IMG/VR virus record: IMGVR_UViG_3300008963_000004
Span: 1-54,374 of that record
DNA: 54,374 bases
Reading direction: 5' to 3' (one strand)
Source: a virus
Taxonomy: Duplodnaviria > Caudoviricetes
Shown: piece after piece, positions 38,923-54,374 of the stretch
Position numbering within the stretch: position 1 is the stretch's first letter
Layout: every line of letters begins with the position of its first letter
Notes under the pieces: generated by a model
What the model was told of the DNA's origin: nothing
The model's input: only the letters and a program-made list of their open reading frames with translations
Databases searched by the model: none
Position numbers and translations under genes: made by a program

Positions 38923-39032
38923 AAAAGATTTGGCATATTTTAATATGGCCATATACTAGAATCAAAGAAAAGATTCAACTTCGTAAAAAATTAAAAGAAC
39001 TAAGAAAAAAGGATCCTTTTATATATCGATGA
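38907..39032 (+). CDS. 41-aa basic protein (not in ORF track)
   Basis: MVSILKKIWHILIWPYTRIKEKIQLRKKLKELRKKDPFIYR*; stop overlaps the next ATG. Confidence 0.65.
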   Translation: MVSILKKIWHILIWPYTRIKEKIQLRKKLKELRKKDPFIYR

Positions 39033-40531
39033 TTACTTGGGGAATATCAGCAAACAGTCATGATGCTGCATTAGCAGTATTCAATGATGATGGATTAGAA
39101 TTTGCCAGTCATAGCGAAAGATTCAGTGGAATAAAGAATGACCCTAATCTGCACAGTGATTTAATTGATTATGCTCGTCAATGGGGAGAACCAGACGAAG
39201 TTGTTTGGTATGAACGTCCTTTGGCTAAAAGCTTTAGACAACTTCGAGCAGGCCAAGGATTTAAATTTTTTGAAAACAACATCAAAGGTTATTTGCGTTC
39301 TTATGGAATAGACACTCCTATTCATTATATTGACCATCATTATTCACACGCTGCTGGTGGCTATTACACTTCACCGTTTGAAAAAGCCACTGTGCTTTGT
39401 TTGGACAGTATTGGCGAATTTGATACTATGACTGTATGGGATGCTACAGAAGAACAAGGTTTAAAAAAGATATTTTCGCAGAAATATCCTCATAGTATAG
39501 GATTGTGGTACAGTGCTATGACACAGAGAATAGGATTAAAGCCACAGGAAGACGAGTATATACTAATGGGTATGGCTGCATATGGCGATCCTCTTAGATT
39601 TTTTAATGAAATATTGCAGGATTTTTTCTATCCTGTAGACAGTAGCACTGGTTTGCATAGCTGGATACACATGTTACATGATACTCCTACAGTTAGATTG
39701 CGTCATAATTTACACAAAGGATGCATGTGGTGGAGGCCAGAACTTAACAACAAAAAAGATATCATAGATATAGCAGCCGCAGTCCAAGCAATATACGAAT
39801 ATCTGCTAAAATACATCAGTAACTGGGCTAGATCAAAATCGTCATCAGGCAATCTAGTTTTCGCAGGAGGTTGTGCACTGAATTGTTCGGCCAATAGTAA
39901 AATATACAAAGATTGGAACAATGTGCACATCATGCCCAATCCAGGCGACGCAGGCAGTGCAATAGGTGCAGTGCTTGCACACAAAAAACAATTCATGCCT
40001 ATGCCGCATGTTTTTACAGGTTATAACATTGTAGGAGATTATCCAGTTGAAGAAATTTTACACGAGTTGTTGGACACTGGTATTTGTGGTGTGGCCAACG
40101 GTCGAGCTGAATTTGGACCTAGAGCATTGGGCAACCGCAGCTTATTGGCAGACCCACGAAAAGATCATATCAAAGACACAGTTAATGCTATTAAACAGCG
40201 ACAGCAGTTTAGACCATTTGCGCCAGCAGTTTTGGAGGAACATGCATCTTCCTATTTCCACGGACCTGTCAGCCCATACATGCAATACACTGCAACTTGC
40301 ACGGATCCTGGATTACCTGCAATCACGCACAGGGACGGCACCAGTAGGGTACAGACAGTTTCTGCAAAAGAAAGCATGGGCTTTAGAAAACTGTTAGAAC
40401 GATGGTATGAAGAAACTGGCTGTCCTGTATTACTAAATACCTCGCTCAATATCAAAGGACGTCCTATGGTAAACACAGCCGATGATGCTAGAGAATTTGA
40501 AAACACATACGGAGTAAAAGTTTTTACATGA
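39029..40531 (+). CDS. Carbamoyltransferase (NodU/CmcH/TobZ family)
   Basis: HDAA, SERFS..K, HHYSHAA, MGMAAYG, GGCALN, GDAG, EFGPRALGNRSLL, RPFAP, H.DGTSRVQTV, LNTSLN. Confidence 0.95.
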   Translation: MITWGISANSHDAALAVFNDDGLEFASHSERFSGIKNDPNLHSDLIDYARQWGEPDEVVWYERPLAKSFRQLRAGQGFKFFENNIKGYLRSYGIDTPIHYIDHHYSHAAGGYYTSPFEKATVLCLDSIGEFDTMTVWDATEEQGLKKIFSQKYPHSIGLWYSAMTQRIGLKPQEDEYILMGMAAYGDPLRFFNEILQDFFYPVDSSTGLHSWIHMLHDTPTVRLRHNLHKGCMWWRPELNNKKDIIDIAAAVQAIYEYLLKYISNWARSKSSSGNLVFAGGCALNCSANSKIYKDWNNVHIMPNPGDAGSAIGAVLAHKKQFMPMPHVFTGYNIVGDYPVEEILHELLDTGICGVANGRAEFGPRALGNRSLLADPRKDHIKDTVNAIKQRQQFRPFAPAVLEEHASSYFHGPVSPYMQYTATCTDPGLPAITHRDGTSRVQTVSAKESMGFRKLLERWYEETGCPVLLNTSLNIKGRPMVNTADDAREFENTYGVKVFT

Positions 40532-42799: not shown

Positions 42800-43014
42800 G
42801 ATTTCTATCCTTGCCCTGTGTGTATTTAGTGGAAAATTCACAGAGCCTCAAAAGCCACGAAGTGGCTTGCGCAGCAAGCCGCAAAGCGCAAAAATTCACA
42901 AGGTCAGCGTCACAGTGCACAAACAATATAAAAACAGAATTTTGTCTCAACCTGGTCGTACGGTACCGTATGAAGCGTCGTACGACCCCGTACGGACCCA
43001 GACACTGTTTTAGC

Positions 43015-43479
43015 TCATTTTAAACGAAATCGCGCTTGCACTGATCGTATGTACACTGTGTTTCTACTGGGGTATTCAGTGTGCGGTCCAAGATCTATCA
43101 CAAAGCCTGTGCTGCTGTTCACAGAAATGTTGAGATCTCGCACAGTGTACACATGATGATCTTCAGCAGTGAGATCACTGAGATTGTCACTGAGCCAACC
43201 TTCACTGTCTCGCATGCGTATCAATCTGTCCTGTGTTCTGCCCAGTCTGCTGACATGCAAGTGTAATTGTGCAGCAAGCACAGTGGATGACAGATCAAAA
43301 TCTCTGTACAGTATGGCCTGAGTCTCCACAGTGTTCAAACGTCCCTGTGACACTGCTACACTGACGCAGGGCTCCAGAGAAACTGTGGCAGTGTCTGTGT
43401 TGAGATTGTCAAACTGTATCCTGTCTGTTTCTGCATATTCTGCGATTCTGGGTCGCAGCCAAGGTGTCCACTGTGCCAT
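43015..43479 (-). CDS. Hypothetical late protein
   Basis: ATG 43479 (MAQWTPW) directly after GCTAAATA. Confidence 0.6.
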   Translation of the reverse strand: MAQWTPWLRPRIAEYAETDRIQFDNLNTDTATVSLEPCVSVAVSQGRLNTVETQAILYRDFDLSSTVLAAQLHLHVSRLGRTQDRLIRMRDSEGWLSDNLSDLTAEDHHVYTVRDLNISVNSSTGFVIDLGPHTEYPSRNTVYIRSVQARFRLK

Positions 43480-43708
43480 GCAGTATTTAGCTGATCTGAT
43501 CAAAGTGAAAATTTTCACAGAGGAAACAGTGCAGATGAGGATTCTTGCGTAGAGTGAAATTCAGTTTGCAGAGAAAAAATCTCGTGCGCAAAAAATTTAG
43601 GGGTATAAAGTTTACAGGACCCCAGGGGTGTTTTTGCTGGAAAAAAACTCCGCGCAAAAAAATTCGGGTGGAGTACTTACAGATTCACGGTGGTGATTTT
43701 TTCTCCCC

Positions 43709-43823
43709 GTGAAAAACGTTTGTCAACGGAAAAATTTTTTTATTTTTTTATTTTTATACGCCGGCCGGTGAAAAAAATCGTTTGTCAACGAAAAAATTTT
43801 TTATTTTTAGATTTTTATACGCC
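43709..43823. repeat. Tandem ~59-bp imperfect repeat within an A/T-tract region
   Basis: GTGAAAAA..CGTTTGTCAACG.AAAAATTTTT.TATTTTT..ATTTTTATACGCC at ~43709 and ~43768. Confidence 0.85.
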
Positions 43824-43911
43824 CCGAGAGAAATTTTTTACACTTTTCAGTTGTTACACTCGCAGGTTGTGCGCATAAAAAAGCACACTCCGACTCAGAG
43901 TATGTTCTTGT

Positions 43912-43940
43912 GTTATAGCTTAAACTGCTGTGCTGCGCAA
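43912..43940 (-). promoter_or_regulatory. Sigma70-like promoter followed immediately by a terminator
   Basis: TTGCGC-17-TATAAC; hairpin 43884-43904 then T6. Confidence 0.55.
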
Positions 43941-43968
43941 GCACTGAATGCGCTTGCGCTGCTGTTTT

Positions 43969-44091
43969 TTAAGTATTTTGTTCCCATGTTCCCATGTGTG
44001 TTTGCAGTTTAAGTGCTGCGAGCTGTATGCGCGGGCACAGGCGCGGGTTAACAGTTGCTTTTGCGAGAGTGATGTAAAGCAGTTTACGCAT
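43969..44091 (-). CDS. 40-aa protein (not in ORF track)
   Basis: TTGCAA-17-TAAAAC promoter, GAGGAG SD; MRKLLYITLAKATVNPRLCPRIQLAALKLQTHMGTWEQNT*. Confidence 0.6.
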   Translation of the reverse strand: MRKLLYITLAKATVNPRLCPRIQLAALKLQTHMGTWEQNT

Positions 44092-44182
44092 AGTGTGCTC
44101 CTCTGTTGCTACACTGTTGTTTTAACAAAAACTGTGGTGCATTGCAAGCACTTTTTGCACTTGCAATGCAGTTGTGTTTGTG

Positions 44183-44323
44183 TTAAAGTATGCGCACGCT
44201 TTCCCACACGCGATGTCCCCCCATGCGCTTAACAAAGTAGTTAATTGCAGTGCGCTTGCTCTTAAACTTGCGCGCTACAGTTTCCCACTCGTTTGCGCTG
44301 TTAAGCACTTGCATAGTATACAT
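44183..44323 (-). CDS. 46-aa protein (not in ORF track)
   Basis: TTGCAC-17-TATAAC promoter, AGGAG SD; MYTMQVLNSANEWETVARKFKSKRTAINYFVKRMGGHRVWESVRIL*. Confidence 0.65.
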   Translation of the reverse strand: MYTMQVLNSANEWETVARKFKSKRTAINYFVKRMGGHRVWESVRIL

Positions 44324-44547
44324 ATTGCTGCTCCTGCTGCTGTTGCTATACATGTGTTATAGCTTAAACTGCTGTAGTGTGCAAGTGTTTTTTTAGAAAA
44401 AAGCAAAAAAATCTGTGCAAGCTGTGCGTGTATATACAGCCGAGCCAATGCACTTTTAGCGTGTAACACTCGCAGGTTGTATTAAAACACACGCTGCAAT
44501 TGCAGCGTGTGCTTTGTTTTATTGCAGCACTGCCTGGATCAGTTTGG

Positions 44548-44856
44548 TCAGTCTGCGTAAACTGTTCTGTGCTGTTCGATGCAGTCCTGCACCAGCTGTT
44601 CTGCGCGACTGTCCTTGCCGCCCACGTGCCAGTCATACCAGCCATCGGGCGTTGTTACTGTCTTCCAGTCGTATATCGTAACCAGCACACCGTTGATCAA
44701 CAGTGTCCATTCTGTGTTGACTTTGCCGTCACCGCTGGCATCCGTGTAAGTGGGCTCGCCAAATACCTCAGTGAGCTCTGCCAGCGTTGTGTGCACATAA
44801 CCCTGCAAGCTGGTGCCGCCTGGGTTGAGTTCTTCACTGTTTACGATGCTGTGCAT
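44548..44856 (-). CDS. Hypothetical early protein
   Basis: Own promoter and SD; FGEP, DGKV..EW, TIYDWK, WHVGG. Confidence 0.75.
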   Translation of the reverse strand: MHSIVNSEELNPGGTSLQGYVHTTLAELTEVFGEPTYTDASGDGKVNTEWTLLINGVLVTIYDWKTVTTPDGWYDWHVGGKDSRAEQLVQDCIEQHRTVYAD

Positions 44857-44863
44857 GTTGTTT

Positions 44864-44920
44864 TCCTCTCTTGTGTTGCCCTATGTGTGTGTTATAGCAA
44901 ACGCACAGAGCTGTGTCAAC
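44864..44920 (-). promoter_or_regulatory. Hairpin promoter/leader cassette
   Basis: TTGACA-17-TATAAC, then ATAGGGCAACACAAGAGAGG; spacer pairs with the +1 region. Confidence 0.85.
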
Positions 44921-44928
44921 TGTTGTTT

Positions 44929-45144
44929 TTAGATTTTTGCAGGATCGCCGTATGCACCTGCATCACACTTGCTGCGATAATACTGTGCAGTGCGGCGTGT
45001 AAGCCCGCACACAATAGGCTGTGCCTCGCCCCAGAAGATGATTGAGCCTTTGCCTTTGACGTCTGCTTTGCGGAATACTGCATAGCTTTCCGCCGAGTCA
45101 CCGTCATACTTCTTAACAGTAAACTTGCTTTTGTTCGTCGCCAT
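44929..45144 (-). CDS. Hypothetical early protein
   Basis: Own promoter and GAGGG leader. Confidence 0.7.
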   Translation of the reverse strand: MATNKSKFTVKKYDGDSAESYAVFRKADVKGKGSIIFWGEAQPIVCGLTRRTAQYYRSKCDAGAYGDPAKI

Positions 45145-45151
45145 CGTGTTG

Positions 45152-45209
45152 CCCTCTTGTGTGTGTTGCCCTACGCCGTTTTATAGCATAGGGCAACATC
45201 ACGGTCAAC
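45152..45209 (-). promoter_or_regulatory. Hairpin promoter/leader cassette
   Basis: TTGACC-17-TATAAA; 13-bp stem TGTTGCCCTATGC/GCGTAGGGCAACA. Confidence 0.85.
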
Positions 45210-45414
45210 CGTAATCTTTAAAATGTCCCAGCTGTTCGTTCTCTTCGTAGCCTGCCCAGTAAGCAGCAATCTCGTCTGCTGTCATGTCCTCCTGCTCGAC
45301 ACGCTCGCTCCGGCCAGTGCCGCCTTTGTAGTAGTGCGGACGAGGAAGACGCCCGTAGTAGCTGTCTGCTGAGCCGCGATCAAATGCTCCGCCGTGTCGT
45401 TGATCGTATGCCAT
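45205..45414 (-). CDS. Hypothetical early protein
   Basis: HGGAFDRGSADSYYGR..RPHYY, EIAAY.AGY; own promoter. Confidence 0.75.
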   Translation of the reverse strand: MAYDQRHGGAFDRGSADSYYGRLPRPHYYKGGTGRSERVEQEDMTADEIAAYWAGYEENEQLGHFKDYG

Positions 45415-45423
45415 AGCGTGTAT

Positions 45424-45484
45424 CTCCTCTGCTGTGTTGTTGCCCTATATGTGTGTTATAGCATCTCACAAAACAGTGTGCAAC
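45424..45484 (-). promoter_or_regulatory. Promoter/leader cassette (weak hairpin)
   Basis: TTGCAC-17-TATAAC, ATAGGGCAAC, GAGGAG. Confidence 0.75.
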
Positions 45485-45554
45485 CGAAAAATTAAACTGT
45501 TTTCGTTTGTGAGCACACAACCCACAGTTGTAACAACCCACAGTTGCAAGCCAC

Positions 45555-45584
45555 AAAAAAACGCAACCTGAAGTTGCGTTTTTT
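45555..45584. terminator. Bidirectional intrinsic terminator
   Basis: A7-CGCAAC-ctgaa-GTTGCG-T6. Confidence 0.75.
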
Positions 45585-45595
45585 CGTTGTGGTGT

Positions 45596-46102
45596 TTAGG
45601 TCCACTTCAGGCCATATGCTCTCAGCGCCGTCACGTTCTCCAGTTTGAAAGTGCGGATCACAACCTTGCGTTCAAGCCCGCCCTGTCCTGTGCTCTCACG
45701 TGCCTCCGGAAGCCCTTCAATCTCGCTTGCTTGCACGGGCTGCCCGTCCAGCATATACTGCACCTCGCCTGCCTTCAGGAAGATCACTTCCAGGTAGTGT
45801 TCGCCTTTGTGAGTAACGAACGGAGTGCCCTCAATGCGCTCGCCCCATGCGCGAGGGCTGAGTTGAAAGCTGTCTGCGTCCTTGCCTTCTGCCTCCAAGC
45901 GGCGCCGCACCATTTTGTCGTATGCGCTGCCGTTGGTGTTTGAAAAGCTCATTACCTGTGCGCCTGTCATCACCTTTGTGACGCGACCTTGCTGCGGATT
46001 CTTCTTGCCGCCTTTGAGCTTGACCGGTGTCGCCGTGTCCAAACCTACGAATGTGCCGCCTTCCAGTGCTGCGAACGCTCTCTGTGCAGTTTCCAGTTTC
46101 AT
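45596..46102 (-). CDS. Hypothetical early protein
   Basis: Own promoter; KLKGGKKNP.QGRVTK, PRAWGER; start at MKLET. Confidence 0.75.
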   Translation of the reverse strand: MKLETAQRAFAALEGGTFVGLDTATPVKLKGGKKNPQQGRVTKVMTGAQVMSFSNTNGSAYDKMVRRRLEAEGKDADSFQLSPRAWGERIEGTPFVTHKGEHYLEVIFLKAGEVQYMLDGQPVQASEIEGLPEARESTGQGGLERKVVIRTFKLENVTALRAYGLKWT

Positions 46103-46111
46103 TGCAATCAT

Positions 46112-46165
46112 CCTTTTTGTGTTGCCTTATGCGTTGTTTATAGCAAACGCACAGGGCAGTGTCAA
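46112..46165 (-). promoter_or_regulatory. Hairpin promoter/leader cassette
   Basis: TTGACA-17-TATAAA; TGCCCTGTGCGTT/AACGCATAAGGCA. Confidence 0.85.
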
Positions 46166-46167
46166 TC

Positions 46168-46299
46168 CTATTTTTTGACTTTTTCGATGATCAGTTTGGG
46201 ATCTCCGGGCAACTGTTGACGAATCATTGCCAATGCGTCCTCATGCCGGCTCACCACAGCCACAGTCTCGTCAGTCATATAGTCTTTGATTGCATACAT
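46168..46299 (-). CDS. 43-aa protein (not in ORF track)
   Basis: GGAG SD; MYAIKDYMTDETVAVVSRHEDALAMIRQQLPGDPKLIIEKVKK*. Confidence 0.6.
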   Translation of the reverse strand: MYAIKDYMTDETVAVVSRHEDALAMIRQQLPGDPKLIIEKVKK

Positions 46300-46302
46300 G
46301 AT

Positions 46303-46557
46303 TTACACTCCCCACAACACTCGCAGACTCTCAGCAGCAGCAAAACCATCGCCCAGTTCGTTCCAGGCATGCTCTGCATCTTCCAATGCCCGAGCACGAG
46401 CATCTACGATACGCTGATCCAGCAGCTCGTTGTGAGCGTCTTCGGCAACGCAGTCTGCGCTATACGTCAGTGCCTGGCAGATGTCGTCTTCGTCGCCGTT
46501 CCAACCAAACTCCAGCAGGTCCCGAAGCTGACGGTTTTCGACATGAGCAAAACGCAT
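46303..46557 (-). CDS. Hypothetical acidic early protein
   Basis: Start MRFAHVEN after AAGGAG; promoter TTGACA-17-TACAGT at ~46583-46611. Confidence 0.7.
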   Translation of the reverse strand: MRFAHVENRQLRDLLEFGWNGDEDDICQALTYSADCVAEDAHNELLDQRIVDARARALEDAEHAWNELGDGFAAAESLRVLWGV

Positions 46558-46642
46558 TTGTATCTCCTTTTTTGTTGTGTTCACTGTAGCGCATGCACGA
46601 AACAGTGTCAACCTGCTTGTGCATGCGCGTCAGTGGATTTTG

Positions 46643-47101
46643 TTACCAACTGGCTCGGTAGTAGAAGTCCCAGCCTTTGAGAGCATCCAGTGCTTCCTTT
46701 GTGAGGAATCCGTTCAGCCAACGCAGTGTGCGTTCCACATCGTCAAAGTAGTATTCGTCGTATGCCGTGCTGCCAAAGAAGAATCCGCTTTGCACAGGCA
46801 GCAGCTTTTCAGCTAGGGAGTGATCCTCTGATACCTGTTTGCAGATATCTCTGAGATCGTGCAGATCTTCTATGGACACAGATGACTCCTGGCATTCGTC
46901 GACGCCCTCTTGCACTGTATCCACAAACCAACGATGGATTGCGTTGGCCTTGCGCCAATACATGAACTCTGCGCTGACTTCGTTGATCCGTGCGCCAGCA
47001 GCTTCCGGAAACAGTCGTGCCACACCTGCGATTCGGTCCTGGTCTGCATCACCAAAGTCCCAAAGGTAACGCTTACCAGTGAAAAACATATCCAGTCCCA
47101 T
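46643..47101 (-). CDS. Conserved phage protein (MGLDM...YWRKANAIH.WF...YYRASW type)
   Basis: Motifs MGLDM, YWRKAN.IH.WF, GFFFGS..YDEYY; SD GAGGAG. Confidence 0.8.
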   Translation of the reverse strand: MGLDMFFTGKRYLWDFGDADQDRIAGVARLFPEAAGARINEVSAEFMYWRKANAIHRWFVDTVQEGVDECQESSVSIEDLHDLRDICKQVSEDHSLAEKLLPVQSGFFFGSTAYDEYYFDDVERTLRWLNGFLTKEALDALKGWDFYYRASW

Positions 47102-47112
47102 GTTGTGCTCCT

Positions 47113-47167
47113 CTCTTGTGTGTTGCCCTATGCGTTGTTTATAGCAAACGCACAGGGCTGAGTCAAC
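47113..47167 (-). repeat. Hairpin promoter cassette, identical 55-bp copy 1
   Basis: TTGACT-17-TATAAA; identical to 47607-47661. Confidence 0.95.
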
Positions 47168-47172
47168 CGTTT

Positions 47173-47595
47173 TTATGCGATTAAACGCTGTTCCCACTGT
47201 GCCCAATGATCAATGCGACCTGCGTTCAGCAGCTGATCAAGGTCGAAGTAGTAGTCAGGTTCGTCGTCGGGTGTGTCCAACACTCGTTTCCTTACGCCCC
47301 ACGGAGCAGGCTCAATGATCTCTTCTCTCTCTGACAATGTCTCAAGTTGAGCATCAGTGAATATATCTTCCTTTGTCATCTGATCACAAACTGGCAGATA
47401 TTGGCCATATGCGACAGTGATTAGAATACAACCCGTATCAGAACCGTCGTTGAACCAGTAAAGGTCCCAACCAGCATAGTCGCCCCAGGGTTCGTCGGTG
47501 TTGGCGTGACATTCTTCGATGAGGAACAGAATAACAGTGCCATCGTCAGGCTGTTCGTCTAGGTACTCTCGGGGTGAACCAGTGACTGCATACAT
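47173..47595 (-). CDS. Hypothetical acidic protein
   Basis: Flanked by identical 55-bp repeats. Confidence 0.7.
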   Translation of the reverse strand: MYAVTGSPREYLDEQPDDGTVILFLIEECHANTDEPWGDYAGWDLYWFNDGSDTGCILITVAYGQYLPVCDQMTKEDIFTDAQLETLSEREEIIEPAPWGVRKRVLDTPDDEPDYYFDLDQLLNAGRIDHWAQWEQRLIA

Positions 47596-47606
47596 CCGAA
47601 GTTTCC

Positions 47607-47661
47607 CTCTTGTGTGTTGCCCTATGCGTTGTTTATAGCAAACGCACAGGGCTGAGTCAAC
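47607..47661 (-). repeat. Hairpin promoter cassette, identical 55-bp copy 2
   Basis: Identical to 47113-47167. Confidence 0.95.
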
Positions 47662-48117
47662 TCAAAAGTTGGGTTCGAGATCGCCAAAATGTTTCTGATT
47701 GCAGCTTGCTTGGAACCGTGTAATCTCAAGTATCTGCTCATCACTGTTCGATGGAAACAGTTGACGCTTCTCTGCAAGGATCTTCTGGAAGCTGTCTGAC
47801 TCTTCGTCGTATGCAACCTCGCCCTGTGCCAATTTTGCAAGCATCGCTTCATCACGCTTGCGCGCCGCTGTATCAGGTTTCTGCTTTGCTGGTGCTGCTC
47901 GCCTGCCTGCAGGACGGTCTTCTGTAAGCCTTTTTGCCACGAGGAATTCAGTTGCCTGTTCCTTGGTCATTGCCGAGCCCAGTTCCCAGAACTCTATGTC
48001 AGTGTGTCCAGCTTTGACCAGCACAGTCTCACGATTGAGATCGTTGGTGAAGCGGAAACGAGTGCGACCTTTTTCGCAAGTGCTGCGGCCTGCGCGAGTG
48101 AAAGTCTTGTTGCTCAT
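47662..48117 (-). CDS. Hypothetical early protein
   Basis: FRFTND..R..VL.KAGHTDI..EL..AMTKE.A; own promoter. Confidence 0.75.
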   Translation of the reverse strand: MSNKTFTRAGRSTCEKGRTRFRFTNDLNRETVLVKAGHTDIEFWELGSAMTKEQATEFLVAKRLTEDRPAGRRAAPAKQKPDTAARKRDEAMLAKLAQGEVAYDEESDSFQKILAEKRQLFPSNSDEQILEITRFQASCNQKHFGDLEPNF

Positions 48118-48131
48118 TGTGTTTCCCTCTG

Positions 48132-48182
48132 TTGTGTGTTGCCCTGTGCAGACAACTTAGCATCTGCACAGAGCAGTGTCAA
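48132..48182 (-). repeat. Hairpin promoter cassette, identical 51-bp copy 1
   Basis: TTGACA-17-TAAGTT; stem TGCTCTGTGCAGA/TCTGCACAGGGCA; identical to 48378-48428. Confidence 0.95.
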
Positions 48183-48189
48183 CTGATTT

Positions 48190-48363
48190 CTACGTTTTCA
48201 GTCCCAGACGCTGATTGAAAATTGAGTTGATTTTGCGAGCAACAAGATCTTTCACCCACTCCGGAGCAGGATCAGACTCCATAGCATCAAGCGCCTCGTA
48301 GAGTTGCATATCAGTGAGATTTTCGAGCCGCTTCAGCTCAGCGTCAAGAGCGGTCTGTGCCAT
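48190..48363 (-). CDS. 57-aa protein (not in ORF track)
   Basis: MAQTALDAELKRLENLTDMQLYEALDAMESDPAPEWVKDLVARKINSIFNQRLGLKT*; GAGGG SD. Confidence 0.75.
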   Translation of the reverse strand: MAQTALDAELKRLENLTDMQLYEALDAMESDPAPEWVKDLVARKINSIFNQRLGLKT

Positions 48364-48377
48364 TCTCTGTTTCCCTC

Positions 48378-48428
48378 TTGTGTGTTGCCCTGTGCAGACA
48401 ACTTAGCATCTGCACAGAGCAGTGTCAA
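48378..48428 (-). repeat. Hairpin promoter cassette, identical 51-bp copy 2
   Basis: Identical to 48132-48182. Confidence 0.95.
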
Positions 48429-48758
48429 TATGGAAAATATTCAATCTCAGCTTTGGTTTCAGGATCTCTCCATTCACTGAGAATACTATCTCGGTTCACT
48501 CCTATCTTGCGAAGTGTGAATTCATTCATATGAGCAATCACTTCAGTTGGGCACAGTTCTCCTTGTTCCGCCAACTCCGTGGGATTTTGCAAAGTGTAAA
48601 AACCCAAACGATAGGGTTTTCCATCCAACCATTTGCAAGTCGTTGATGCCGTCGAGCCGAGCTTGCTGCAAAAATTCAAAGCGATCCTGCTCAACCCACA
48701 GTTCAACTCCTTGGAATTTGACCATAACATATTCAGGTTTTTGAAGGAAAAAATTCAT
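48425..48758 (-). pseudogene. Probably frameshifted hypothetical gene
   Basis: Promoter TTGAAC-17-TAATGT and GAGGG lead to MNFFLQ (stop 48543); an overlapping frame runs on to 48425. Confidence 0.45.
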
Positions 48759-48790
48759 CCTGTTGCCCTCTGTGTTGCTGTGTGTTTACA

Positions 48791-49048
48791 TTAGCACTGA
48801 CGCGGACGAAGTTCAACCTCTAAATTCACTGCGTGTCGTGCTTCAGGCTTCAGCACATACTGGTCTCGTTTGCTGTATGCATACCGTATCAGTGACCGCT
48901 CGTCGTCGTTTAGATTATCTATCTTATCCAACATCTCCAGATCCACTGAGAGTTGACTTGCACGGTTTGCTACAATATCATCAGGGTCAACTTCTGCGAC
49001 GTTGCGTAGAAGCTGTTTGATTTTTTGGATTTCAGATACTGTGAACAT
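48791..49048 (-). CDS. Hypothetical protein
   Basis: ORF on the array strand. Confidence 0.55.
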   Translation of the reverse strand: MFTVSEIQKIKQLLRNVAEVDPDDIVANRASQLSVDLEMLDKIDNLNDDERSLIRYAYSKRDQYVLKPEARHAVNLEVELRPRQC

Positions 49049-49102
49049 TCTGCTTCTTTTTTTTGTGCTGCGTATGCGTTTAACAGCGGGGCCTCATAGT
49101 GT

Positions 49103-49128
49103 GTGCAGCGCAGTTGCCTGCGCTGCAC
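49103..49128 (-). terminator. Stable hairpin with GCAA tetraloop
   Basis: GTGCAGCGCAG-GCAA-CTGCGCTGCAC on the minus strand; no U-tract. Confidence 0.55.
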
Positions 49129-49136
49129 CTTGCTGC

Positions 49137-49388
49137 TTACCGAGCAAAGTTGATCACTGCCTGGCCTTTGGGAGTCAGCTTGGTGTTGTGCCGCGGGCGC
49201 CCACGCCCTTCCTGCTTCACAGCCACAAAGCCCACGTAACCAGCTTCAGCCAGCTGACGCTTGTGGTAGTAGCTGGGCTCAGCATAGCCTTCCATGCCTT
49301 TGATGCCTTTCAGTGCAGCCAGCAGCTTGTCCTTGCGATCGAAAATGCTGGGGGCGCCGCGCTTGGAGTTGGAGTTGGAGTTGGTCAT
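49137..49388 (-). CDS. Small basic possible DNA-binding protein
   Basis: L.EAGYV, GRGRP, KLTPKG (winged-helix-like tail); promoter TTGACA-17-TAAGTT at ~49440-49468. Confidence 0.6.
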   Translation of the reverse strand: MTNSNSNSKRGAPSIFDRKDKLLAALKGIKGMEGYAEPSYYHKRQLAEAGYVGFVAVKQEGRGRPRHNTKLTPKGQAVINFAR

Positions 49389-49580
49389 TTTGTATTTTCC
49401 CTCTTGTGTGTGTTGCACTAGCTCTTTGCTAGCATGTTTAACTTAAACTGTTGTGCCTTCAGTGTCAACAGTTTTTTTCGACGTTCGATGATTTTTTTGT
49501 ATCTCCTTTGTGTGTTTCTGTTTGTTCAAACTTTATAGCACAGCACTGAGCCGTGATCAACAAAAAAATTACCAAATGTC

Positions 49581-49780
49581 AAAAAAAGCCCTTGCTGCGA
49601 GGGAACACAGCAAGGGCCTAGTGTAGGAGCAGAGCGTGAGGGCAACGTTTGCTCCTAGTGCACAGTTGGTCGAGGGCGGACCAACCATGTGTTACAGCAG
49701 CACCTGAGGGCACAAGGGCTACTGTTGTGCAGCACAGGAGCAGTGCTCAACTGTGCTGATTCGCCGTGCTGTCCACGGTC
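49581..49780 (-). ncRNA. Candidate multi-hairpin RNA with anti-SD-like (CCCUC) loops
   Basis: Hairpins 49588-617, 49624-657, 49665-685, 49694-725 and 49730-758; ends in hairpin+U7 on the minus strand. Confidence 0.65.
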
Positions 49781-49786
49781 TTTTTG

Positions 49787-50797
49787 TTATCTGCTCATCA
49801 CAGTGTTTTCTGCAAACGCTTTCCAGTTCTGCGGGAACGCTTTTGCCAAGTCAGCAACTTTGAGAACAGTTCGAAGACTGAGTTCTCGCAGTCTGTGTTT
49901 GTGTTCGTCTACGAAATCAATGATTTCCATCTTGACATCCTGTGCTAAATCGTAATTATCCAGCATGCCGTCCTGAACAACTTGACGAATACGCAGCATC
50001 TTTTCTCGCTCTGTGTCAATGGTCAAGTCAATGTAGTGACAGCGCGATTCCAGTGCTTCCAGATGATCCTTCAACTTTTTGCTCTTGACACGATCAAACT
50101 TCAAGTTTGTGATAAAGATAGCCGAACCTTCAAAACGAAAGCTGTCAGGTACACCTTCATTGCGCAACTTGAAACTGTCTGTGTTCCAATGAATAGTGCG
50201 ATGCTTTTTTGAGTCCAGTGCTGCTTTCATGATGTTGAGACTGAGTTCATCTGAAAACACAGAATCACAGTCGTCGAACACAATCACATTGTCTCGGTCT
50301 GCATACTTGTAGAGTTTGACATACAAGCCGATTGCGCTCATTGCACCTTTCACGACTTCGTATTTCTTGGCGCCGCCCAGCGTCTCAACCATCTGATAAC
50401 GATCCAGCACTTCCTCTACACCGTGGCTCTTGCCAACACCTGGAGGACCTGATACGATCATTGCTCGAACATCGCCCTTCTTCACAGCTTTGGTCATTTC
50501 GTTGAGCATGCCAAAGCGAGTTCTCAGTCGTTCTACAATCTCGTCATCAGTCTCTTCGATCACTGGTTCCTTAACAGCAACAGCGGGGCCTTCAGTGACT
50601 TCGTAATCATCCTCACTGTCACAGAGGATCTTGATGTTGTGATCAGGAAAGCCAGGATGTGAACTGCCGTTTACAGTAACATAGCCACCGCGCTTGCCTG
50701 TTTTGAACCCTTCGACCAGCTCAAAGCTCATGCCGTTTACGTCGGTAGGAACTCCGCGCAGTTTGTAGCGTCCGTTGATGATAGTGATTGTGCTCAT
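49787..50797 (-). CDS. AAA+/P-loop ATPase
   Basis: GPPGVGKS, IVFDDCD, IFITN, ALESR, RELSLR; promoter TTGACA-17-TATACT. Confidence 0.85.
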   Translation of the reverse strand: MSTITIINGRYKLRGVPTDVNGMSFELVEGFKTGKRGGYVTVNGSSHPGFPDHNIKILCDSEDDYEVTEGPAVAVKEPVIEETDDEIVERLRTRFGMLNEMTKAVKKGDVRAMIVSGPPGVGKSHGVEEVLDRYQMVETLGGAKKYEVVKGAMSAIGLYVKLYKYADRDNVIVFDDCDSVFSDELSLNIMKAALDSKKHRTIHWNTDSFKLRNEGVPDSFRFEGSAIFITNLKFDRVKSKKLKDHLEALESRCHYIDLTIDTEREKMLRIRQVVQDGMLDNYDLAQDVKMEIIDFVDEHKHRLRELSLRTVLKVADLAKAFPQNWKAFAENTVMSR

Positions 50798-50846
50798 GCA
50801 TTTCCCTCTTTGTGTTCAATCAGTATACTGTGATTGTTCTCTGTTG

Positions 50847-51011
50847 TCAACCAAACAACAGTGCCAAAATAACGCCAAAGCCAATGATATACCCAACGAA
50901 CCCGATCACTTCGAACATGATGTGATCGCCCACTGAGGAACTGTGTGTGCAATGCGAGCAGTGCGATGCAAACATTGGCTTTTCCTTGTGACACTTTGGA
51001 CAGTATGCCAT
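50847..51011 (-). CDS. Zn-ribbon membrane microprotein
   Basis: CPKC..CSHC plus hydrophobic tail; promoter TTGACA-17-TATACT, AAGGAG. Confidence 0.7.
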   Translation of the reverse strand: MAYCPKCHKEKPMFASHCSHCTHSSSVGDHIMFEVIGFVGYIIGFGVILALLFG

Positions 51012-51137
51012 GATGTTCTCCTTGTGTTGTCCATTGCAGTATAGCAGCAATTCTTGTGTATGTCAACTCGCATAGCAGGAGGATCGTCAGCAAAGCGCGA
51101 GACCAACACTCTCAATGCGAGATCAACTCCTGCTAAC

Positions 51138-51214
51138 TGGCGCTCCCGGAAGGACTCGAACCCTCAACCTAGGCATTAGAAGTGCCTTGCTCTTTCCAGT
51201 TGAGCTACAGAAGC
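51138..51214 (-). tRNA. tRNA-Arg(TCT)
   Basis: Cloverleaf: TAGCTCAACTGGAAAGAGC D-arm, AGGCA-CTTCTAA-TGCCT, GGTTCGAGTCC, CCA end. Confidence 0.95.
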
Positions 51215-51219
51215 GTATA

Positions 51220-51305
51220 TGGTGCGGGCGGTGGGACTCGAACCCACAATCCATTAAGGCGACAGATTTTAAGTCTGTTGAGTATACCAATTCCTCCACG
51301 CCCGC
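51220..51305 (-). tRNA. tRNA-Leu(TAA)
   Basis: GCGGGCG acceptor, ACAGA-CTTAAAA-TCTGT, long variable arm, GGTTCGAGTCC, ACCA end. Confidence 0.95.
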
Positions 51306-51327
51306 GTCTTTCTCTGTCTACTTGTTT

Positions 51328-51356
51328 AATTTAGCGTCGTTCTGTTTCTTTGTCAA
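51328..51356 (-). promoter_or_regulatory. Sigma70 promoter for the tRNAs
   Basis: TTGACA-17-TAAATT. Confidence 0.7.
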
Positions 51357-51392
51357 GTTCTTTTGACGGATTGCTTCTGCTATCTTACGCTT

Positions 51393-51420
51393 GTGCTCTA
51401 ACCAATTGAGCTAATCCCCC
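51393..51420 (-). pseudogene. 5' fragment of a tRNA
   Basis: GGGGGATTAGCTCAATTGGTTAGAGCAC; no anticodon arm or T-arm. Confidence 0.8.
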
Positions 51421-51436
51421 GTTTGTCCTTTTCTGA

Positions 51437-51463
51437 TGTGTCTACCAATTCCACCACGCAGGC
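51437..51463 (-). pseudogene. 5' fragment of a tRNA-Leu-type gene
   Basis: GCCTGCGTGGTGGAATTGGTAGACACA; remainder missing. Confidence 0.8.
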
Positions 51464-51474
51464 TCTGTGCCTAT

Positions 51475-51693
51475 TTACTTGTTCTCCTTGTAAACAGGCT
51501 TTGGTTTCGGTTTGATGTTTGCCTGTGCTTGATCAATCATGTCGTTGAGCATAGATACTTGTTCTTTGACAATCATAAGCTCGCACTGTTGAACAGTGAT
51601 CATTTTGGTTGGCTTTACTGGAGTCTTGTCAGCAAAAGCTGGAAAAGCCAACATTGCCATAACACCAGCAGTGAGAATGATTTGATTTTGCAT
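51475..51693 (-). CDS. Small secreted protein
   Basis: Signal peptide ending PAFA-D; promoter TTGACA-17-TACACT. Confidence 0.7.
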   Translation of the reverse strand: MQNQIILTAGVMAMLAFPAFADKTPVKPTKMITVQQCELMIVKEQVSMLNDMIDQAQANIKPKPKPVYKENK

Positions 51694-51755
51694 TGTATAT
51701 CCTCTTCTACTCGCACAGTGTATGACAGGGCCGAAGCCCTGTCAACTGTTTTGTT

Positions 51756-52028
51756 TTATGCTGCGTCGACCACAGCAAGCATTGCAGCCGGCACGTTCCA
51801 AGTGGTGAAGCCTTCACGCACCTTCACGTTCTTGCGATTCACTTTGACAACTTCACCGGTGATCACACGCCCGCGAGCAGTGAATTCAACAGTGTCGCCA
51901 ACGTTAACCGAACGGATGTTCTGCATGGAGATGAACTGTCGCTGAAGCTTCACAGCGTCAATGATCTGCGCCAGTTCGTCGTTGTTGTTGCAGTTGCGAA
52001 TTGCAGTGATTGCAGTTTGAACACTCAT
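51756..52028 (-). CDS. Small SH3/KOW-like protein
   Basis: VGDTVEF...GEVVKVNRKNVKV....WNVPA.ML; promoter TTGACG-17-TATAAC. Confidence 0.75.
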   Translation of the reverse strand: MSVQTAITAIRNCNNNDELAQIIDAVKLQRQFISMQNIRSVNVGDTVEFTARGRVITGEVVKVNRKNVKVREGFTTWNVPAAMLAVVDAA

Positions 52029-52079
52029 TGTGTATTCCCTCTTTGTGTGTTGCTCTATGTGTTAGTTATAGCACCGGAT

Positions 52080-52271
52080 TTAGAACTCGTCAATGAGATA
52101 TTCTTCCTCAGGCTCATAAACCACACAGCCGTCAGCGTCATAGACTTCTACATCTCGTGAGCCTGAGTCAAACTCTTCGTCTGCTCGAGCACAGGCCGCT
52201 TCCAGTGTGCGGCACTCAGCGATCAGTGCTTCGTTGGCATAGCCTCGTGCGAAATAGACGTAATACATCAT
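52080..52271 (-). CDS. Hypothetical acidic protein
   Basis: Coupled ORF with SD. Confidence 0.7.
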   Translation of the reverse strand: MMYYVYFARGYANEALIAECRTLEAACARADEEFDSGSRDVEVYDADGCVVYEPEEEYLIDEF

Positions 52272-52534
52272 TCCATCTCCTCTAGTTGCTCGTAATGGGC
52301 TTCAAGCTCGCGCACCATTTGGTTGTGGGTTGGCGTGTTAAGGTGCACCAACCCCACATACATCGAATCGTTGAATCCAACTTCAGTGATATACACGTCT
52401 TTGAGGCCAAGGTCTATGTCCAGGAAGTTCTGTAGATAACGGAACTCGTGATAGTCATCCGCAGTGATCACACGCGGCAGATCCAGCGTGACCTGTGCAT
52501 CAGTCTTGATGTTGTCAGGATCGATCATCGTCAT
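52268..52534 (-). CDS. Hypothetical protein
   Basis: AAGGAG SD. Confidence 0.7.
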   Translation of the reverse strand: MTMIDPDNIKTDAQVTLDLPRVITADDYHEFRYLQNFLDIDLGLKDVYITEVGFNDSMYVGLVHLNTPTHNQMVRELEAHYEQLEEME

Positions 52535-52540
52535 TCTCCT

Positions 52541-52690
52541 TTAGTCGCACATTCCCATGAAAGCAGCAGCACCAGCGCCGTTGCCCAACAGCAGAGCCCG
52601 CGCCCCACATTCTTTGAAAGTAAATACAGCCATGCTCACAGCAAGCACAAACCATACAGCTATTACAAAGTATACCCAGCGTGGAAACAT
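52541..52690 (-). CDS. 49-aa membrane protein (not in ORF track)
   Basis: GGAGG SD; MFPRWVYFVIAVWFVLAVSMAVFTFKECGARALLLGNGAGAAAFMGMCD*. Confidence 0.65.
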   Translation of the reverse strand: MFPRWVYFVIAVWFVLAVSMAVFTFKECGARALLLGNGAGAAAFMGMCD

Positions 52691-52691
52691 G

Positions 52692-52844
52692 TCAATCCTC
52701 CAGTTTGCGAGTAGTGCCATAAGCCACAGTCAAAACAGCATTGGCTAGACAGATAGCCCAAAACTCCCAACCACCGCCTGGGAACGCTTGTCCTGCTGTG
52801 TAGCCAACAAGTCCGCCTTGGACGATTATAATAATGTTATTCAT
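52692..52844 (-). CDS. 50-aa membrane protein
   Basis: Start MNNIIII; two hydrophobic segments. Confidence 0.6.
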   Translation of the reverse strand: MNNIIIIVQGGLVGYTAGQAFPGGGWEFWAICLANAVLTVAYGTTRKLED

Positions 52845-52845
52845 A

Positions 52846-53166
52846 TCACACCCCCCGTCCGTAGTAATGTTTCTCAATCAGTGACCGTGCAGCATCGTAG
52901 TCGTCTTGGATCTTTGAGCTAACAAAGTAAAAGCGACGCGAGCCGTTGCCTCCAGGACCAACTCCAGCGTTCTCTCCGTCGCCGAATACTGCGGCGTTGT
53001 CGAGATAACGGAAGCCGCGATAGTTGCCAGTGTCAAACAGCACGCCTTCGACGAAGGTGCACATCACCTCCCGCTCCTCTGCGGTTGAGTTCTCCGAAGC
53101 GAGGAAATAGTTTACGCGGTGCAGCAGTGTGCCAACTTCTACAGTCTTGCGCTTAGTCTTAGCCAT
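52846..53166 (-). CDS. Hypothetical early protein
   Basis: RKTVEV, E.VL..TGNYRGFRYL; own hairpin promoter. Confidence 0.75.
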   Translation of the reverse strand: MAKTKRKTVEVGTLLHRVNYFLASENSTAEEREVMCTFVEGVLFDTGNYRGFRYLDNAAVFGDGENAGVGPGGNGSRRFYFVSSKIQDDYDAARSLIEKHYYGRGV

Positions 53167-53173
53167 TTGCAAA

Positions 53174-53231
53174 CCCTCTTGCTGTGTTGCCCTACCCTTA
53201 TACTATAGCACAAGGGTAGAGCAGTGTCAAC
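53174..53231 (-). promoter_or_regulatory. Hairpin promoter/leader cassette
   Basis: TTGACA-17-TATAGT; stem TGCTCTACCCTTGT/ATAAGGGTAGGGCA. Confidence 0.85.
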
Positions 53232-53237
53232 CAGTTT

Positions 53238-53480
53238 TTACCAGTGATGACTGCTGCCTAGATCACAGTAGTCCGCAGTGTAGGGGCTCCACTCCTCGTC
53301 CTCGTCCTCGTCCTCTTCATCCTCTTCTTCCCACATAAAGAACTCTTCGTTGTGTGCCATGTCAGCAACTTCGTCTTCGCTCATGTAGCCCAGCGCAGCT
53401 TGTGCAACCTGCTCCCAAGTCAGCAAGCCTTCATCAACAGCGTCGTAAATCCGGATTGTCATTTGACGTGCATTAGCCAT
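53238..53480 (-). CDS. Hypothetical protein with acidic tract
   Basis: Start MANARQ; L.YMSEDEV.DM...EE. Confidence 0.75.
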   Translation of the reverse strand: MANARQMTIRIYDAVDEGLLTWEQVAQAALGYMSEDEVADMAHNEEFFMWEEEDEEDEDEDEEWSPYTADYCDLGSSHHW

Positions 53481-53487
53481 TGTGTAG

Positions 53488-53546
53488 TTCCTTTGTATGT
53501 GTTGCCCTATACGCTTACAATAGCAAACGCATAGGACAGTGTCAAC
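53488..53546 (-). promoter_or_regulatory. Hairpin promoter/leader cassette
   Basis: TTGACA-17-TATTGT; stem TGTCCTATGCGTTT/AAGCGTATAGGGCA. Confidence 0.85.
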
Positions 53547-53547
53547 A

Positions 53548-53694
53548 TCAAACTTCAGTGTTGACGTCAATCAGTTCCATGTTCTTGATTTGATCCTCAT
53601 ATGTGAAGTCATAGTCCATCTCGGCAATTACTTCGCTGACGTCTGCGTCTTCCTCCAAATACAGTGCAACAGTAACGTGAATCATCCGGGCCAT
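53548..53694 (-). CDS. 48-aa acidic protein (not in ORF track)
   Basis: AGGAG SD; MARMIHVTVALYLEEDADVSEVIAEMDYDFTYEDQIKNMELIDVNTEV*. Confidence 0.7.
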   Translation of the reverse strand: MARMIHVTVALYLEEDADVSEVIAEMDYDFTYEDQIKNMELIDVNTEV

Positions 53695-53739
53695 ATCAGT
53701 CTCCTATGTCGTTGTGTGTGTCTGTGTTGTAGCATATGA

Positions 53740-53777
53740 CGGGCAGCGTGTCGACTCCATTGTCGACACGCTGCCCG
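53740..53777. other. Perfect 16-bp inverted repeat overlapping a TCGACA-17-TACAAC promoter
   Basis: CGGGCAGCGTGTCGAC-6-GTCGACACGCTGCCCG. Confidence 0.8.
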
Positions 53778-53783
53778 GAAGGA

Positions 53784-54311
53784 TCAGTAATAGTATTCGT
53801 CCTCTTCTTCCTCTTGGTCCTCTGCCAGCTGCTCGTCCTCACAGTAGTGGCACAGGCTGCTATACAGCCCGCCTCCGTCTACTTCGTCGCCGCACTCTTC
53901 GCAGAAGTTCTGCTCCGGCTCTTCGTATTCGAACATGTCTTCCGTGTTCTCAGCATTGACGAGCTCCGGCCGCTCCAGGATGTGCTCCACAGTGCTGTCA
54001 ATCATGCGCTCTACAGCAACCTGCAAGCTGTCGCCTTCGTAGCGCCCGTCATACAGCAAGCCTCGTGTGTATTCGTAGATGGTGCCGTGTGTCTCAGCGT
54101 CAATGACACCTTTATGGAGCAGGAAGTTCACAGCGCCACTGGTGTTGTTGCCCATGCCGTTGTTATACAGGTCGTGAGCAAGGCGTGTTGCTGAGCGCAG
54201 CATCTCGCCAGCTACAGTGTCGCAGTTGCCCATCAGCGGAATGAGCTCATCGCACATCCGATCAAAGTCTGCTTGGTAAGCGCCCTGCTTGTTCCAGTAA
54301 GTGTTCTGCAT
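53784..54311 (-). CDS. Hypothetical protein with C-terminal Zn ribbon and acidic tail
   Basis: YWN..G.YQ, GE.LR...RL.HD.YNNG.GN, CEECG..LCHYC. Confidence 0.75.
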   Translation of the reverse strand: MQNTYWNKQGAYQADFDRMCDELIPLMGNCDTVAGEMLRSATRLAHDLYNNGMGNNTSGAVNFLLHKGVIDAETHGTIYEYTRGLLYDGRYEGDSLQVAVERMIDSTVEHILERPELVNAENTEDMFEYEEPEQNFCEECGDEVDGGGLYSSLCHYCEDEQLAEDQEEEEDEYYY

Positions 54312-54320
54312 AGCGTGTAT

Positions 54321-54374
54321 CCCTCTCTGCTATGTGTTGCCCTATGTGTAAGTTATAGCAAACACATAGGGCAG
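54321..54374 (-). promoter_or_regulatory. Hairpin promoter/leader cassette (cut by window end)
   Basis: Perfect 12-bp stem TGCCCTATGTGT/ACACATAGGGCA around TGCTATAAC. Confidence 0.8.

Follow-up and report, generated by a model that had tools for sequence, protein, structure and literature searches.

What kind of RNA carries nearly the same short loop on one hairpin after another, with stems that share nothing, directly behind a single phage gene? The question is raised by IMG/VR virus record IMGVR_UViG_3300008963_000004 (Duplodnaviria; Caudoviricetes), a 54,374-bp viral contig, estimated at about 15% of its genome, that was analysed over its whole length and is called the window below. The first 42.8 kb have a GC content of about 34%, and their plus strand encodes structural and replication proteins of a large myovirus, including tail sheath, tube, terminase, helicases and a carbamoyltransferase. 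The remainder, from 42.8 kb onwards, has a GC content of about 50%, with small open reading frames (ORFs) on the minus strand; this part of about 11.5 kb is referred to as the early block. The hairpin array spans 49576-49786 on the minus strand of this block, between the ORF of an AAA-type ATPase (49787-50797, minus strand) and the small gene that comes next, with its start at 49388. An earlier note, made from the letters alone, had proposed a multivalent antisense RNA that shuts off the phage's own early mRNAs. Comparison with related contigs indicates that the array belongs to a family of structured RNAs, conserved and present in single copy in the early region of uncultured jumbo myoviruses of one widespread clade, and its loops may act as antisense sites against the Shine-Dalgarno (SD) regions of early genes.

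The hairpin array and its conservation

The minus strand of positions 49560-49800 folds into six consecutive hairpins with a free energy of -101 kcal/mol (z = -6.53), and none of 200 shuffled sequences was equally stable; the plus strand of the same segment gave z = -3.24. Four of the six hairpins show [U/C]-[G/U]-CCCUC in the loop, in the forms GUUCCCUC, (U)UGCCCUC(A), CGCCCUC and GUGCCCUC, and the stems are unrelated in sequence to one another. Five such loops had been claimed in the earlier note, which wrote them for the plus strand. The coordinates of CGAGGGAACA (49598-49607), GAGGGCA (49638-49644), GAGGGCG (49672-49678) and GAGGGCAC (49706-49713) are all correct, while the fifth, GGAGCAG at 49737-49743, reads CUGCUCC on the minus strand and is for the most part paired within an inner GAGC/GCUC stem of the predicted fold. 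Four of the five GAGGG found on the plus strand of the 11.5-kb high-GC part lie inside this 110-nt stretch, and the clustering of the loop motif is not due to chance. No other minus-strand site in the early region is as strongly terminator-like as the last hairpin, with its 14 pairs and U7 tail. This agrees with the earlier reading that the element ends in hairpin plus U7, and the loop of this hairpin is complementary to GAGGGAA(C). The features of an intrinsic terminator, a GC-rich hairpin followed by a U-run, are found in this last hairpin and not in the array as a whole.

In 70 related loci, a promoter-like site lies directly upstream of the ATPase gene in 64 and downstream of the array in 57, and is found within the last 250 nt of the ATPase ORF in only five; a promoter belonging to the array itself was rejected on the last of these counts. 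Because the array lacks its own promoter, it is best read as the 3' untranslated region (3'UTR) of the ATPase mRNA. The gene order of the window, where promoter, ATPase, array and terminator follow one another on the minus strand and the neighbouring genes are also all on that strand, agrees with the assignment of the element to the 3' region of the ATPase transcript in the earlier note. Wobble pairs likewise bear on the strand. Among 31 distinct units with at least six Watson-Crick pairs, which are not fully independent of one another, 17 interior G.U pairs occur on the ATPase-sense strand versus three A.C pairs, that is, G.U pairs on the other strand (binomial p 0.003). In addition, the promoter scan detected no plus-strand promoter-like site between 48981 and 49932. 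Promoters, wobble pairs and gene order together favour the minus, ATPase-sense strand, suggesting that a decoy made from the plus strand, which the earlier note had kept as an alternative, is to be disfavoured.

A scan of viral contigs returned 80 loci with the ATPase. At least two CCCTC motifs were found on the sense strand within 300 nt past the ATPase stop in 62 of them (two to five motifs at a spacing of about 35-45 nt), one motif only in four, and none within this distance in 14. One of the 14, L032, holds an intact array pushed away by an insertion of about 650 nt. This insertion lies at about 2190-2840, between the ATPase stop and an array nearly identical to that of L025; one of its forward frames is open yet has no start codon, suggesting that an ORF, perhaps of a mobile gene, lies on the opposite strand. 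Within the arrays, 106 of 187 CCCTC motifs are in loops closed by at least five uninterrupted base pairs; the corresponding counts are 51 of 196 for same-strand motifs outside the arrays and 254 of 827 for the opposite strand. This measure depends less on selection than the unit alignments described below. On the ATPase tree (63 distinct rows), the array is present in all 53 rows of one clade (support 100/96) and missing from the ten rows on the other side.

Folding of the related loci revealed recurring loop types: U-GUGCCCUC-G (40 units), GGA-CCGCCCUCA-UCC (16 units), AAUGCCCUC (12 units, often containing the ATPase stop codon) and a further type, GAGC-A..AGCCCUCAC-GCUC. Two anchored alignments of long-stem units were made. 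In class a the loop GUGCCCUC is invariant, with double changes at nine of ten stem pairs; in class b CCGCCCUCA is invariant, with double changes at eight of ten. The loop motif is thus conserved in relatives, where about 60 loci in environmental viral contigs, from relatives of up to 357 kb, form a family with invariant loops and covarying stems. A covariance model of the class-a unit (R1) matched the complete relative G001 (357,559 bp) once and G003 once, each time within the array, and nothing else in five large records; a genome has the array at a single locus. For many relatives, the ATPase stop codon is located in the loop of the array's first hairpin, e.g. as stem-AAUGCCCUC-stem (L002 at about 7000-7020, L012 and L006), so that a terminating ribosome would unfold the first unit.

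Among cultured phages, a nucleotide search with the 1.8-kb region gave no match, and a protein search gave ATPase homologues that are all below 60% identity (best 46%). The two homologous loci inspected, of Cronobacter phage S13 and Pseudomonas phage PA5oct, have no array downstream of the ATPase. A few relatives carry lone hairpins with an exact array loop (GUGCCCUC or AUGCCCUC) upstream of the ATPase, for example L002 at about 4738 (-2264 from the ATPase stop) and L056 at about 4351 (-2651); therefore, single units can exist outside the array.

Early-gene leaders and loop complementarity

The genes of the early block have stereotyped leaders of the form (U)AGGGCAAC...GAGGG[C/A]AA-ATG, in which a -10-like TATAAA is followed by about 7 nt, (U)AGGGCAACACACAA, GAGGG[A/C]AA, a few nucleotides and the ATG. 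The position of AGGGCAAC at transcript 5' ends, as given in the earlier note, fits with its place directly past a -10-like box in 8 of the 28 starts listed. The SD motifs named there are likewise all found where they had been placed: GAGGGCAAC ahead of the starts at 45144 and 48758, GAGGGAA ahead of those at 47595, 48117, 48363, 49388, 50797 and 52028, and AGGAGCA ahead of those at 44091, 44323 and 47101. GAGGG occurs once in the 42.8 kb of the late plus strand versus 13 times on the coding strand of the 11.5-kb early region. In G001, 13 of the 17 forward matches to GAGGG[C/A]A fall within 6.4-21.3 kb, the block that holds the array, and three of the reverse-strand matches are the array's own loops. 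The ATPase itself has GAGGGNN as its SD in 38 of 48 distinct relatives.

The block at 7.5-25 kb of G001 (L083+L011+L084) has a GC content of about 50%, versus 33-42% elsewhere, and is enriched in TTGACA and AGGGCAA. Since this complete relative has an equal block, the jump from 34% to 50% GC in the window is a family trait, and a chimeric assembly was rejected as its cause. Genes flanking the ATPase are poorly conserved, the window's neighbours being present in 0-30 of the 80 loci, and no conserved neighbour that could be a candidate protein partner was found among these loci. Along positions 43000-54374 (minus strand), cassettes share a near-identical promoter/leader module, TGCTATAAA-N7-UAGGGCAACACACAA-GAGGGAAAC-ATG.

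To compare loops with leaders, interaction energies were corrected for accessibility, by adding to the duplex energy what it costs to open both sites, for each loop against positions -40 to +15 around the starts. The best loop-leader energy had a median of -7.9 kcal/mol for 19 early leaders, versus -1.3 kcal/mol for 34 late leaders (Mann-Whitney p 2e-7), -4.2 kcal/mol for the early leaders read backwards (Wilcoxon p 3e-4) and -2.5 kcal/mol for coding windows of the same early genes (p 3e-5). The complementarity proposed in the earlier note is thus specific to early leaders and exceeds the late, reversed and coding controls; by prediction, the array has one of the features of a trans-acting base-pairing small RNA (sRNA), an accessible seed complementary to the initiation regions of targets beyond controls. 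The strongest predicted sites are the SDs GAGGGCAAC (-14.4 and -14.3 kcal/mol) and the 5' UAGGGCAAC motif (-8 to -11.6 kcal/mol), and it is hairpin 5 that has the best predicted pairing to leaders with GAGGGCAAC and UAGGGCAAC.

In 58 distinct arrays, the motifs at the SD position include GAGGGCA (271), GAGGGCU (68), GAGGGAA (26), GAGGGUA (22) and GAGGGCG (13), and the loop classes are UGCCCUC (49 loci), AGCCCUC (37) and CGCCCUC (18). The loop classes mirror the SD classes, and a perfectly complementary 7-mer loop is present in the same locus for 304 of 462 SD motifs. Among motifs other than GAGGGCA, 63 were matched in this way, versus 50.0 +/- 6.6 after loop sets had been permuted among loci (126 of 5000 permutations were as high). 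A UUCCCUC loop was found in the window alone, which is also the locus where GAGGGAA dominates as SD (six genes).

Proposed antisense action and alternative explanations

We consider that the array functions, with a probability that we judge evenly balanced, as a multi-hairpin anti-SD antisense RNA on the phage's own early mRNAs. According to this proposal, the 3'UTR of the early ATPase mRNA is an array of two to six hairpins that show [U/C/A]GCCCUC loops, with the terminator last, and the loops would serve as multivalent antisense sites that pair over 6-8 nt with two repeated motifs of early leaders, namely (U)AGGGCAAC near the 5' end and GAGGG[C/A]AA as ribosome-binding site. SDs of the GAGGG type can pair with the CCUCC anti-SD at the 16S rRNA 3' end through GAGG alone. 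Because the 6-8 nt of loop pairing exceed the 4-nt GAGG:CCUC pairing with 16S rRNA, the array RNA would occlude ribosome-binding sites. As it accumulates, whether as complete mRNA or after processing to a stable 3' fragment, it would damp or stop the translation of early genes; the ATPase mRNA itself would be among the repressed targets, giving negative feedback or a timed shut-off of the early set. The structure, its conservation, strand and single locus, the complementarity and the confinement of the motif to the early block are observed in this scheme, and we infer that the RNA accumulates, that pairing takes place in vivo, and that its outcome is repression rather than activation or stabilisation. 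A host-directed role appears weaker than the self-directed one, since the loops match generic host SDs (GGAGG/AGGAG) over only about 4 nt.

A more far-reaching and more tentative version, which we place a little short of even, is that the clade marks its early genes with a private extended leader (AGGGCAAC...GAGGGCAA), at which one multivalent RNA, made from an early promoter and with hairpin loops that imitate an extended anti-SD sequence, out-competes the ribosome and so times early shut-off. If true, a gene that gains the portable leader cassette would join the regulon automatically. An RNA of this kind would also explain why an identical leader is kept amid a hyperplastic region of unrelated, fast-turnover genes. 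In the known temporal programmes of phages, control is exerted by proteins, for example RegB, RegA, anti-sigma factors and new polymerases; such an RNA would add a layer and would represent an RNA-only equivalent of T4 RegB/RegA. It would also be a natural multivalent anti-SD RNA of extended specificity, a design useful for orthogonal translational control.

Several observations weigh against the antisense proposal. With GAGG being the core of ordinary SDs, any C-rich loop should show some complementarity to it. The GAGGGAA leaders reach only about -5 to -8 kcal/mol with short pairing cores, and GAGGGCG, the complement of the class b loop, is a rare SD (13 of 462). The outcome of the loop-set permutation test is modest and uncorrected for relatedness. 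GAGGG[C/A]A is missing from the sense strand of each of 13 array-less loci and occurs at least once in 62 of 67 array loci, a co-occurrence that appears as a single change on the ATPase tree and hence as one contrast. The 99-100% pairing in the class a and class b alignments arises by construction, because rows were picked for pairing, and these alignments inform solely on stem diversity around a fixed loop. A T-run of at least five follows the last motif hairpin in just 31 of the 58 distinct arrays, the remaining arrays having interrupted U-rich tails or additional hairpins after it. Across the family, the minimum free energy (MFE) of the whole array is lower on the sense strand in 28 of 53 cases (p 0.71), which is uninformative as to the strand, and the search of sequencing runs listed no RNA run containing the element sequence. 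Finally, some positions are conserved beyond what antisense pairing needs, namely the closing U.G pair (12/13), the GGA/UCC stem tops and CAC-GCUCUGC of class c, which hints at a structural or protein constraint.

These positions are what a protein-binding platform would account for. The hairpins would then be repeated sites for an RNA-binding protein of phage or host, possibly the ATPase, that reads the [U/C]GCCCUC loop, and the array would titrate, recruit or assemble that protein (compare CsrB/RsmZ-CsrA and CcaF1-CcsR), with the leader complementarity being secondary or part of a three-way competition. The GGA...UCC stem top (10-11/11), the loop length and the register are conserved without being needed for pairing, as is the closing U.G; the complement of the class b loop is seldom an SD; and the array is always tied to the ATPase gene while its neighbours turn over. 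However, the analysis yielded no candidate for such a protein, sequence and profile searches revealed no RNA-binding domain in the ATPase, and its cultured homologues in S13 and PA5oct do without an array. The platform also leaves unexplained why the hallmark motif of early leaders is confined to the same block. We regard it as rather unlikely; an array of this kind would still represent a new structured RNA family in jumbo phages. A purely cis-acting 3'UTR is a somewhat less probable explanation, in which the hairpins would protect the mRNA against 3' exonucleases, terminate transcription at a cassette boundary in a PeSL-like manner, or fold back on the GAGGG SD of their own mRNA so that only the ATPase is autoregulated, without action in trans. 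It agrees with the lack of an own promoter and the constant 3'UTR position, with a terminator as last hairpin followed by the next early promoter, with the complementarity of loops to the ATPase's own SD in most relatives, and with the stop codon in the first loop of many of them. Yet stability or termination requires no invariant loops across a clade in which stems are free to vary, the window's other cassette terminators are without the motif, and up to five or six loops are more than one SD requires.

The last two alternatives are much less probable. Hairpins that act at the DNA level, as cruciforms or in single-stranded DNA during replication or recombination, or that are non-functional remnants of inverted leaders left by cassette shuffling, might be expected where cassettes are shuffled and promoter/leader modules recur, as in this hyperplastic block (for the PeSL concept, see the available part of PMC4122927). 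We hold this to be very unlikely, since the array, with compensatory stem changes and invariant loops, has not been lost from any of the 53 rows of a diverged clade, stands at a fixed place after one gene, once per genome, and has strand-asymmetric wobbles that point to RNA. An RNA made from the plus strand, whose GAGGG loops would imitate an SD or act as a decoy, either for ribosomes or for a protein that binds GAGGG, has a probability close to negligible. In its favour, a weak plus-strand hairpin plus T5 lies at 49763-49785, and the MFE of the whole array is similar on both strands in the family. Apart from the missing promoter, the wobble-pair ratio and the weaker plus-strand fold in the window described above, its closing U.G pair would become a C.A mismatch, and the transcript would run antisense into the ATPase ORF, because the array begins at the ATPase stop in relatives.

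Known systems and other features of the window

With Rfam 15 at gathering score, no covariance model matched the array, and only two tRNAs were found elsewhere; at E values up to 10 the array gave sub-threshold atoC (19.6 bits vs 50) and mmgR/suhB (16.5 bits vs 41) only. Our literature search found no description of such an element, the supplementary lists of metagenomic RNA motifs being outside its reach. The closest architecture is that of the cuckoo family of Alphaproteobacteria (CcsR1-4/RSs0680a-d, alpha-r14/C14), which, in the available part of PMC4615179, is described as two to four adjacent hairpins with variable stems and CCUCCUCCC in every loop, co-transcribed with the upstream gene in Rhodobacter and ending in a terminator-like hairpin. 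The phage array similarly consists of adjacent variable-stem hairpins (here two to six) with the same C-rich, anti-SD-like motif in each loop. In contrast to the cuckoo RNAs, its loops are [U/C/A]GCCCUC instead of CCUCCUCCC, CCTCC is absent from the array, it is encoded by a phage and lies downstream of an AAA ATPase gene rather than by a DUF1127 gene, its complement is a phage-specific extended SD/leader motif and not the generic SD, and no Rfam model of the group matches it. The comparison drawn in the earlier note thus stands as an analogy of architecture and not as membership: by this analogy the phage RNA would work like the cuckoo kind without being a member of it.

RNAIII and the Rsa RNAs of S. 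aureus have UCCC loops. The same available text (PMC4615179) mentions that C-rich motifs in several hairpin loops of such RNAs make the first contact with target SDs. These RNAs share with the phage array the C-rich motifs in several hairpin loops; they belong to other organisms and are unrelated in sequence, whereas the phage units form a 3'UTR array with the phage's own early genes as predicted regulon. In the accessible part of PMC3014915, T4 RegB is described as an endoribonuclease whose GGAG cleavage sites include its own SD besides the translation-initiation regions of early mRNAs. The proposed logic resembles that of RegB and of the translational repressor RegA, where an early factor reads an SD-region motif in many early mRNAs, its own included, and ends the early phase; proteins do so there, and a base-pairing RNA would do so here. 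Profiles for RegA (PF01818) and RegB (PF10715) gave no match in the window or in two complete relatives, and were silent in control genomes too.

The organisation of the early block also recalls the PeSL modules of T4-like phages, which, in the available parts of PMC4122927 and PMC2839356, are shuffled early-gene cassettes with a terminator stem-loop and a promoter. Both have small early-gene cassettes, a terminator stem-loop, a sigma70-like early promoter, a repeated leader and rapid gene turnover, and the boundary seen here, with a promoter-like site past the terminator in 57 of 70 loci, is likened to PeSL by description and not by consensus. Those parts of the two papers present single terminator/promoter modules tied to recombination, and describe no multi-hairpin array complementary to leaders. 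CsrB and RsmZ likewise have many hairpins with one repeated loop motif in one RNA. They differ in that the phage array has no GGA loops on the transcribed strand (GGA is in only two of the five named plus-strand loops) and no Rfam match; a CsrA sponge of the CsrB/RsmZ type was rejected, as the minus-strand loops are of the CCCUC type without GGA. A ToxI-like tandem repeat array was also rejected, since the stems are unrelated and Tandem Repeats Finder gives only a TTGGAG repeat (3.7 copies) outside the array.

The coordinates of the array units, the ATPase unit and the predicted target sites are collected in the table.

Table. Positions in the window of the hairpins, the ATPase transcription unit and the SDs predicted as targets
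Feature	Position	Strand	Remarks
Hairpin 1	49764..49778	-	CCGUG-GACAG-CACGG, no CCCUC motif; on the plus strand a weak hairpin + T5
Hairpin 2	49730..49758	-	degenerate unit, inner GAGC/GCUC stem
Hairpin 3	49694..49725	-	loop region UGUGCCCUCA, class a unit; model R1 15.6 bits, E 0.25
Hairpin 4	49661..49689	-	11-bp stem, loop CGCCCUC, class b-like
Hairpin 5	49624..49657	-	loop region GUUGCCCUCA, class c-like (...GCCCUCACGCUCUGC)
Hairpin 6, intrinsic terminator	49576..49619	-	14-bp stem, loop GUUCCCUC, U7 tail; R1 35.3 bits, row belonged to the model's training alignment
AAA-type ATPase ORF	49787..50797	-	336 aa; phrog_1250, E 1.7e-82; array best read as its 3'UTR
Strong sigma70-like promoter of ATPase-array unit	50822..50850	-	TTGACA-17-TATACT, 11/12
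ATPase's own SD, GAGGGAA	50802..50808	-	predicted target on the same mRNA
Predicted target SD, GAGGGCA	45150..45156	-	gene start 45144; -14.4 kcal/mol
Predicted target SD, GAGGGCA	48764..48770	-	gene start 48758; -14.3 kcal/mol
Predicted target SD, GAGGGAA	47603..47609	-	gene start 47595; leader also has UAGGGCAAC at about -29
Predicted target SD, GAGGGAA	48123..48129	-	gene start 48117
Predicted target SD, GAGGGAA	48371..48377	-	gene start 48363
Predicted target SD, GAGGGAA	49397..49403	-	gene start 49388; next cassette downstream of the array
Predicted target SD, GAGGGAA	52035..52041	-	gene start 52028

Sequence searches of the ATPase against NCBIfam and PDB gave no informative name. Between the array's terminator and the next gene (49440-49560, minus strand), two promoter-like boxes, TTGATC..TATAAA and TTGACA..TAAGTT, are found together with AAGGAG and then an A-rich stretch, which may be a second short transcript or a mini-ORF. 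The TTGGAG repeat lies at 49363-49384, at the 5' end of the minus-strand ORF starting at 49388, and encodes an Asn-Ser repeat immediately past the start codon. Genes for tRNA-Arg(UCU) and tRNA-Leu(UAA) are located at 51138-51305 (minus strand), in the early block just upstream of the ATPase unit, with a promoter-like site by them at 51356-51328. Meanwhile, the carbamoyltransferase gene (39029-40531, plus strand; Carbam_trans_N/C, phrog_1601) adjoins a DnaB-like helicase gene and lies just ahead of the early block.

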